A stretch of 9,889 nt of DNA from Escherichia coli (GTDB lineage Bacteria > Pseudomonadota > Gammaproteobacteria > Enterobacterales > Enterobacteriaceae): the NCBI RefSeq assembly GCF_003334785.1, contig NZ_QOWV01000033.1. One strand, written 5' to 3'. Below are positions 5,425 to 5,592 of this stretch, piece by piece. The stretch's first letter is position 1; every line of letters starts with the position of its first letter. The notes under the pieces are model-generated. The model was not told where the DNA came from. It saw only the letters and a program-made list of their open reading frames with translations, and searched no databases. Both the position numbers and the translations under genes were made by a program.

Positions 5425-5563
5425 GTAACGGCTCAGCGCTTAATGCAATTGACGTAACCGGGCAGCTCGTTTACGGGCCGTAAGTAATGAAGTTAGATGC
5501 AAATGTCAGATCGTGTGCGCCTGTTAGGGCGCGGCTGGCAAGAGAGCCTTATAGGCACATTTG

Positions 5564-5592
5564 AAAAACCTCCGGTTATTCCGGAGGTTTTT
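5564..5592. terminator. Bidirectional rho-independent terminator
   Basis: AAAAACCTCCGG-TTATT-CCGGAGGTTTTT: perfect 7-bp GC-rich stem (CCTCCGG/CCGGAGG) flanked by an A5 run and a T run, so it reads as stem plus U-tract on both strands. About 30 nt past the minus-strand pilin stop (5623) and about 140 nt past the plus-strand small ORF stop (5424). Confidence 0.8.

Follow-up and report, generated by a model that had tools for sequence, protein, structure and literature searches.

An intact IS200 element carries a tnpA gene encoding a Y1 (HUH) transposase of about 152 codons, and its left end holds a terminator palindrome together with a stem-loop that sequesters the ribosome-binding site. Transposition in the IS200/IS605 family needs both the left end (LE) and the right end (RE). 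The left-end hairpin (nt 12-34) was shown experimentally to be a bidirectional terminator that stops ca. 85% of incoming transcripts (PMC4513863, PMC5435999), and the 5' end of the tnpA mRNA gives rise to a small RNA (PMC5435999). REPs are related to the ends of IS200/IS605-family elements, and those ends resemble REP hairpins (PMC3333891). In the part of the literature that was covered, we found no published test of the RE hairpin of IS200 as a terminator. One gene of the locus described here encodes an ANR protein, and proteins of this type act as small anti-activators against virulence regulators of the AraC type (PMC4038620, PMC4983702).

The locus lies on the window, by which we mean the whole stretch of 9,889 nt of Escherichia coli DNA that was analyzed. 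Two E. coli IncFIA-type plasmids, NZ_AP022179.1 and NZ_CP069544.1, were 100% identical to the window and are referred to as the source plasmids. The genes of the window are as follows.

139-337 and 2608-3086: two fragments of an IS3-family transposase gene, split by a group II intron
3470-4279, plus strand: first AraC-family regulator gene, GC 0.31
4327-5151, minus strand: second AraC-family regulator gene, GC 0.31
5245-5424, plus strand: ANR-family small regulator gene (NCBIfam NF033650, 51.2 bits against a cut-off of 32, and RefSeq annotation), GC 0.34
5623-6129, minus strand: major pilin gene of the CS15/CS22/SEF14 family, the last gene of the chaperone-usher-pilin operon, GC 0.47
6231-8687, minus strand: usher gene
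8671-9480, minus strand: chaperone gene

This plasmid-borne fimbrial locus was widespread in gut and wastewater samples, its ANR protein being listed in 540 collection blocks. Several further features were observed in the window. The group II intron is complete (2,270 nt, 338-2607; 5' GTGTG, 3' CTAC), with a reverse transcriptase/maturase ORF at 994-2517 (TIGR04416, 336 bits) and domains V/VI at 2521-2607 (Rfam match to RF00029), and several contigs of the second allele described below (e.g., L118) have the intron-free site, window position 337 being joined straight to 2608. The two AraC-family genes are convergent and 47 nt apart (4280-4326); neither terminator scan gave a hairpin between them, and transcriptional interference between the two is possible. 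Upstream of the pilin gene, in the 101 nt that separate its start from the usher stop, is a GC-rich hairpin, AGCCCCTT-TACTT-AAGGGGCG (6160-6182), with no T-run on either strand; it could act in mRNA processing or stability. A short ORF with a signal-peptide-like start (MNKTLAILLFSVSFSAYA...) is placed divergently upstream of the chaperone gene, at 9639-9767, and may represent a truncated gene for an outer-membrane or fimbrial protein.

The ANR and pilin genes are convergent, and their stop codons (5424 and 5623) are separated by a gap of 198 nt (5425-5622). A sequence-only reading had drawn attention to a GC-richer stretch in this gap, and we found it at the same coordinates and with the same features: the GC content of 5425-5592 was 0.50, as against the lower values listed above for the ANR gene, both AraC-family genes and the pilin gene. 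The parts of the gap are as follows.

5425-5454, plus strand: 30 nt from the ANR stop to the IS200 stub, GC 0.50, with no match outside this locus
5455-5596, plus strand: orphan IS200 right end, from blastn to IS200C; left boundary uncertain by ca. 3 nt
5458-5487, plus strand: last nine codons of tnpA and the stop codon (PGSSFTGRK-stop in the window, PGSPFTGRK-stop in IS200C)
5518-5533, no strand assigned: small inverted repeat GCGCC-TGTTAG-GGCGC, internal to the IS200 RE and identical in the window and in the aligned E. coli and Salmonella IS200 copies
5559-5568, minus strand: predicted U-tract for transcripts of the pilin operon, UUUUUCAAAU (U5), native IS200 sequence
5564-5592, no strand assigned: IS200 RE terminal hairpin, an inverted repeat and predicted bidirectional intrinsic terminator; top candidate on both strands
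5588-5596, plus strand: predicted U-tract for ANR transcripts, TTTTTTATT (U6AUU); ATATTTATT in intact IS200 copies
5597-5622, minus strand: 26 nt from the pilin stop codon to the IS200 tip, with only a weak 4-5 bp hairpin and no U-tract

The GC-richer stretch is, with near certainty, an orphan, 5'-truncated right end of an IS200 insertion sequence. When full IS200C (721 nt) was compared with the window by blastn, its nt 580-721 matched 5455-5596 at 92.96% identity over 142 nt (E 8.7e-58). The match was collinear through the tnpA stop codon and spanned the entire 142 nt, not being confined to the hairpin. The triplet before the tnpA remnant (5455-5457) is TAA in the window and TAT in IS200C. 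Of the gene of an intact element, only the last 9-10 codons of tnpA (5458-5487) are left. The right end with its terminal hairpin is present and the left end is missing: blastn with the full IS200C copy gave no second IS200 segment anywhere in the window, the LE palindrome was absent from the window when up to three mismatches were allowed, and blastn at word size 7 gave no LE match. The tip of the element could be placed at 5596, as 25 independent IS200 copies agree up to ...ATATTTATT and then diverge at once. A search of a phage collection with full IS200C contributed only to setting the boundaries of the element. Both inverted repeats of the spacer are native IS200 sequence, the larger one being the RE terminal hairpin. 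The smaller repeat, which the sequence-only reading had also pointed out, was present at 5518-5533; a 5-bp inverted repeat of such size occurs by chance about once per 200 nt by our own estimate, and it counts only because it is invariant IS200 sequence.

Database searches led to the same identification. A megablast of 5150-5700 against plasmids returned two full-length matches, to the source plasmids, and approximately 650 partial ones, which shared one common sub-segment and were nearly all annotated as IS200/IS605-family tnpA. The stub was matched in 652 plasmid records, almost always under or beside an annotated tnpA, and in the two plasmid matches that were inspected, the similarity ran from the last ca. 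30 nt of tnpA to the end of the element. IS200 with a matching RE was present in 2572 of the 5426 complete E. coli genomes, the RE being found at 8,528 places in them. RefSeq records had no feature annotated under the stub. The unusual base composition of the spacer is thus explained by the IS200 stub, and no new RNA or regulatory module is needed to account for it. Among the three origins proposed in the sequence-only reading (a long 3' untranslated region, a small RNA or a remnant of recombination), the last came nearest; that reading had not identified the whole stretch, with its two repeats, as an IS200 right end. A further recombination remnant may account for the 30 nt that separate the stub from the ANR stop. 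A separate palindrome, ACCGTTAAGTAACGGC (5417-5432), lies across the ANR stop codon and appeared in the first scan as a weak terminator-like site on the minus strand; it has no U-tract on the plus strand and is probably due to chance.

We considered whether the stub could be a still-mobile miniature element, such as an IS200-derived MITE or PATE, or a REP-like repeat. The resemblance of IS200/IS605-family ends to REP hairpins (PMC3333891) and the existence of a second RE-like orphan, in Enterobacter mori, are in keeping with such an element. Against it, LE sequence is missing from the window, the stub retains part of the tnpA reading frame, broken off at an arbitrary point, and the variant with a TTATT loop and T-tail was confined to this locus in the searches of 100,044 species genomes and the JGI metagenomes. 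A MITE or PATE would have LE and RE around a short non-coding core and would occur in multiple copies; here, the LE was absent and a single locus was found. There is hardly any chance that this explanation is correct.

The terminal hairpin of this right end is a palindrome of 12 nt, AAAAACCTCCGG at 5564-5575 and CCGGAGGTTTTT at 5581-5592, which are 100% complementary around a 5-nt loop, TTATT (5576-5580). Its core stem, CCTCCGG/CCGGAGG (5569-5575 and 5581-5587), has 7 bp, 6 of which are G-C pairs, and a folding energy of -12.7 kcal/mol. The flanking A5 and T5 (AAAAA, 5564-5568; TTTTT, 5588-5592) lengthen the stem to a perfect 12 bp at -18.0 kcal/mol. A U-rich tract follows directly 3' of the stem (UUUUUUAUU on the plus strand). 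The structure thus has the GC-rich stem (5-14 bp), the loop (3-8 nt) and, on both strands, the U-rich tract of an intrinsic terminator, and it also has the arrangement of a bidirectional one, with an A-tract and a T-tract placed symmetrically around one hairpin and convergent genes on both sides. The pilin stop codon lies 30 nt from the hairpin.

Terminator candidates on both strands of the 9.9-kb window were ranked with a hairpin closing at its 3' side and a T-rich octamer as requirements. The hairpin at 5564-5592 ranked first on both strands (core -12.7 kcal/mol on plus, -12.2 kcal/mol on minus), and the next unrelated candidate in the window scored -7.9. Of 60 first-order Markov random sequences as long as the window, a single one gave an equally strong candidate on either strand. 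A first, standard terminator scan did not list 5564-5592, probably because the stem was extended through the A/T pairs, leaving too few T in the tail. In the fold and terminator scans, no further terminator-like structure was found between either stop codon and the hairpin.

The earlier reading of the palindrome as a bidirectional terminator fits the stem, both U-tracts, the convergent genes and the lack of a better candidate, as a prediction from sequence. We consider the stub hairpin to be probably a bidirectional intrinsic terminator for both convergent units, and real termination in at least one direction is likely, because the hairpin is the sole candidate by both stop codons, terminators occupy the same place in related loci, and the left end of IS200 provides a precedent. 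The earlier view of the GC-richer sequence as a long 3' untranslated region follows if ANR transcripts stop at the hairpin, in which case that region would be approximately 170 nt long.

The same fold could also be taken as a sign of a small regulatory RNA, for instance one released by processing from the 3' untranslated region of the ANR mRNA, with its own 3' end at the hairpin. The whole segment folded better than shuffled sequences on the plus strand (z = -3.1) and on the minus strand (z = -2.4), mostly owing to the 5564-5592 hairpin; a terminator at the end is as found in small RNAs, and RNA from IS200 is open to regulatory use, given the small RNA from the tnpA 5' end (PMC5435999). No Rfam family, however, reached its gathering score in the segment: the best match was sroD, at 23.9 bits against 50, aligned on the hairpin alone, and a search over 5200-5700 with E values up to 10 gave only weak sub-threshold matches that all rested on the generic hairpin. 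Over the whole window at the gathering threshold, Rfam 15 gave only the group II intron (2521-2607). The segment contained no promoter-like site, and known IS200 small RNAs derive from the left end, which is missing here. The small RNA origin proposed earlier therefore found no support in the covariance-model scan, and we regard it as very improbable.

The stub differs from intact IS200 by four substitutions in the loop and tail, at 5576, 5580, 5588 and 5590. All 27 intact IS200 copies that were compared (25 recovered from plasmids and viral contigs, one from an ST2747 chromosome and one from Salmonella houtenae) had the loop CTATG and the tip ATATTTATT. The loop substitutions remove a C-G pair, reducing the 8-bp stem of IS200C (-14.8 kcal/mol) to the 7-bp stem of the window. 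The tail substitutions (ATAT to TTTT, with the T at 5588 and at 5590 derived) create the unbroken U6 on the plus strand and bring the palindrome to 12 bp. The canonical IS200 RE already has the appearance of a terminator acting on transcription that comes into the element from its right side, and the version in the window has this appearance for both directions. Changes were found at 4 of 30 positions in the hairpin and tip and at 5 of 112 positions upstream; the clustering was suggestive, not significant (Fisher p = 0.09).

These substitutions were searched for elsewhere. The exact pattern of TTATT loop and T-tail had no match in one genome each of 100,044 species. A looser scan of the same genomes for a 12-bp palindrome returned 67 sites, which were unrelated terminators in many phyla with two exceptions: an RE-like orphan in Enterobacter mori and a Salmonella arizonae site that was similar over the hairpin alone. 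In the metagenome scan, the canonical loop with a T-tail was not found, and a JGI metagenome scan allowing any loop returned this locus alone. Among the 5,426 complete E. coli genomes, the best identity was 92.6% for the whole stub and 95.5% for 5455-5566. No donor IS200 lineage with a TTATT loop or a T-tail was found among the species genomes, metagenomes and complete E. coli genomes searched. The orphan of Enterobacter mori LMG 25706 (L065, 790-910) is 76% identical over 83 nt and has the same stem, with a T5 tail and CATAG as its loop. Its immediate neighbor is an IS3-family element, and it was the only other RE-like sequence with a T-run tail among the 100,044 species genomes.

The history of the stub was followed through copies of the locus. 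The stub, with an identical left junction, was present in all 24 sampled copies that span the junction, 16 of allele 1 and 8 of allele 2. The 16 allele-1 copies comprised one of the two source plasmids and the genome and metagenome contigs recovered through the exact ANR and pilin proteins. The 198-nt spacer was identical in 16/16 of them; since these copies are >99.9% identical throughout, this identity is uninformative on constraint. The second allele, with a pilin of 167 aa, was listed in 132 collection blocks. Compared with the window over 5465-9815 (contigs L116-L124), it differed by 10.8% in the pilin gene, 16.8% in the 101-nt pilin-usher spacer, where divergence was maximal, and 5.7% in the usher gene, and by 1.0% in the chaperone gene and 0.9% in the region upstream of it. 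This mosaic divergence suggests recombination or diversifying selection centered on the pilin gene.

In allele 2, the stub has the same left junction and the TTATT loop, with a T7 tail in place of T6 and no substitution in the 29-nt palindrome. The ninth allele-2 contig, L116, begins inside the stub and agrees with the others in loop and T7 tail. Between the alleles, the full stub differs by 3.0%, and the chaperone gene (1.0%) is more conserved. As the stub has been inherited in both alleles, its truncation and the loop and tail changes are older than the allele split. No stub-free version of the locus was found by DNA searches with the ANR and pilin sides, among the contigs recovered by exact protein, or in the second allele; the DNA searches with either side gave the two source plasmids and nothing else. 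The nearest different fimbrial loci (CP049615.1 and CP099079.1; pilin 44-49% identical) contain no IS200 sequence. They carry canonical terminators of their own, 13-60 nt past the pilin stop and unrelated in sequence to the stub. A terminator after the pilin gene is therefore expected, and the IS stub fills that place. The comparison with related loci that had been proposed as a check thus gave a divided answer: the segment is nearly unchanged in the second allele and absent from the more distant relatives.

The stub could instead be an inert scar, in which the hairpin is an IS200 remnant only, any termination happens incidentally and the substitutions in loop and tail reflect neutral decay. 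Every feature of the stub is explained by IS200 ancestry, the clustering of substitutions is not significant, and conservation within the locus family carries no information. As the hairpin is fully accounted for by IS200 ancestry, no function in the locus and no selection are required to explain it. However, no second terminator candidate was found for either the ANR gene or the pilin operon, and related loci have a terminator at that place. Both tail changes are A-to-T and together yield an uninterrupted U6, and the tract of allele 2 is longer (T7), not eroded. A hairpin of such strength with U-tracts would also be expected to terminate even if it had never been selected. This explanation, which we consider improbable, differs from a terminating stub solely in whether termination matters to the cell.

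We favor the explanation that the segment is an IS200-derived stub whose hairpin would end both convergent transcripts, to which we assign a probability of roughly 0.8. An IS200-type element once lay between the ANR and pilin genes with its tnpA oriented as ANR, and a later deletion or recombination took the left end and ca. 580 bp of tnpA, leaving a 142-bp right-end stub (5455-5596) unable to move. The A5 upstream and the T6 downstream, the latter the result of two A-to-T changes, would form a standard Rho-independent terminator in RNA of either strand. For ANR transcripts, the predicted end is the U-tract at about 5588-5596, with a 3' untranslated region in which 142 nt are IS-derived, and chaperone-usher-pilin transcripts would end at about 5564-5568, roughly 55-60 nt past the pilin stop. 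Each unit would be kept from antisense read-through into the other, and both mRNAs would gain a protective 3' hairpin. The origin from IS200, the truncation, the folding energies of the hairpin and the descent of the stub in two alleles are demonstrated; the stop of transcription at the hairpin, like its importance to the cell, is a point that we infer.

A further step, co-option, can be put forward only tentatively and is rather unlikely. The native RE hairpin carries a good U-tract on the antisense strand only. Once the stub was immobile, its RE tip would have been free to change, and the pair of A-to-T changes would have given the U6-U7 tract and a symmetric bidirectional terminator that was kept as the alleles diverged.

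Fragments of insertion sequences and intrinsic terminators are both routine, and the stub is a new, unannotated instance; it opens no major question. For annotation, its value is that an unrecorded IS200 remnant accounts for the composition of the spacer and that it marks the site of an earlier recombination, at the ANR-pilin junction of a fimbrial locus carried on a plasmid. If termination is real, a fragment of an insertion sequence supplies the 3' end of two convergent virulence-type transcription units, and the right-end hairpin of IS200 may, like that of the left end, protect the element against transcription coming from outside. If co-option were general, IS200 ends would be recurrent, ready-made terminators for horizontally acquired operons.

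Compared with known systems, the stub resembles REP/BIME and other repeat-derived 3' hairpins in being a 3' intergenic, repeat-derived palindrome with a plausible role at the mRNA 3' end; unlike them, it is a single-copy fragment with clear IS200 coding remnants and not a member of the dispersed REP family. It has in common with the bidirectional intrinsic terminators of convergent bacterial genes one GC-rich hairpin with A-tract and T-tract sides between convergent stop codons, the difference being that this hairpin came from a mobile-element fragment. Another perfect, GC-rich palindrome bordered by runs of A and T is the left-end hairpin of IS200; however, its sequence is CCCCCAGC-TAGG-GCTGGGGG, it belongs to the other end of the element, and the window lacks it. 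From intact IS200 and IS200C the stub differs by having no transposase gene and no left end, by its loop (TTATT instead of CTATG) and by its tip (TTTTTTATT instead of ATATTTATT). With their right end it shares the tnpA stop codon, the GCGCC-N6-GGCGC repeat, the A5 tract and the CCTCCGG/CCGGAGG hairpin, and the RE segment used in mini-IS200 constructs, "RE, bp 566-707" (PMC4513863), has almost exactly the extent of the stub.
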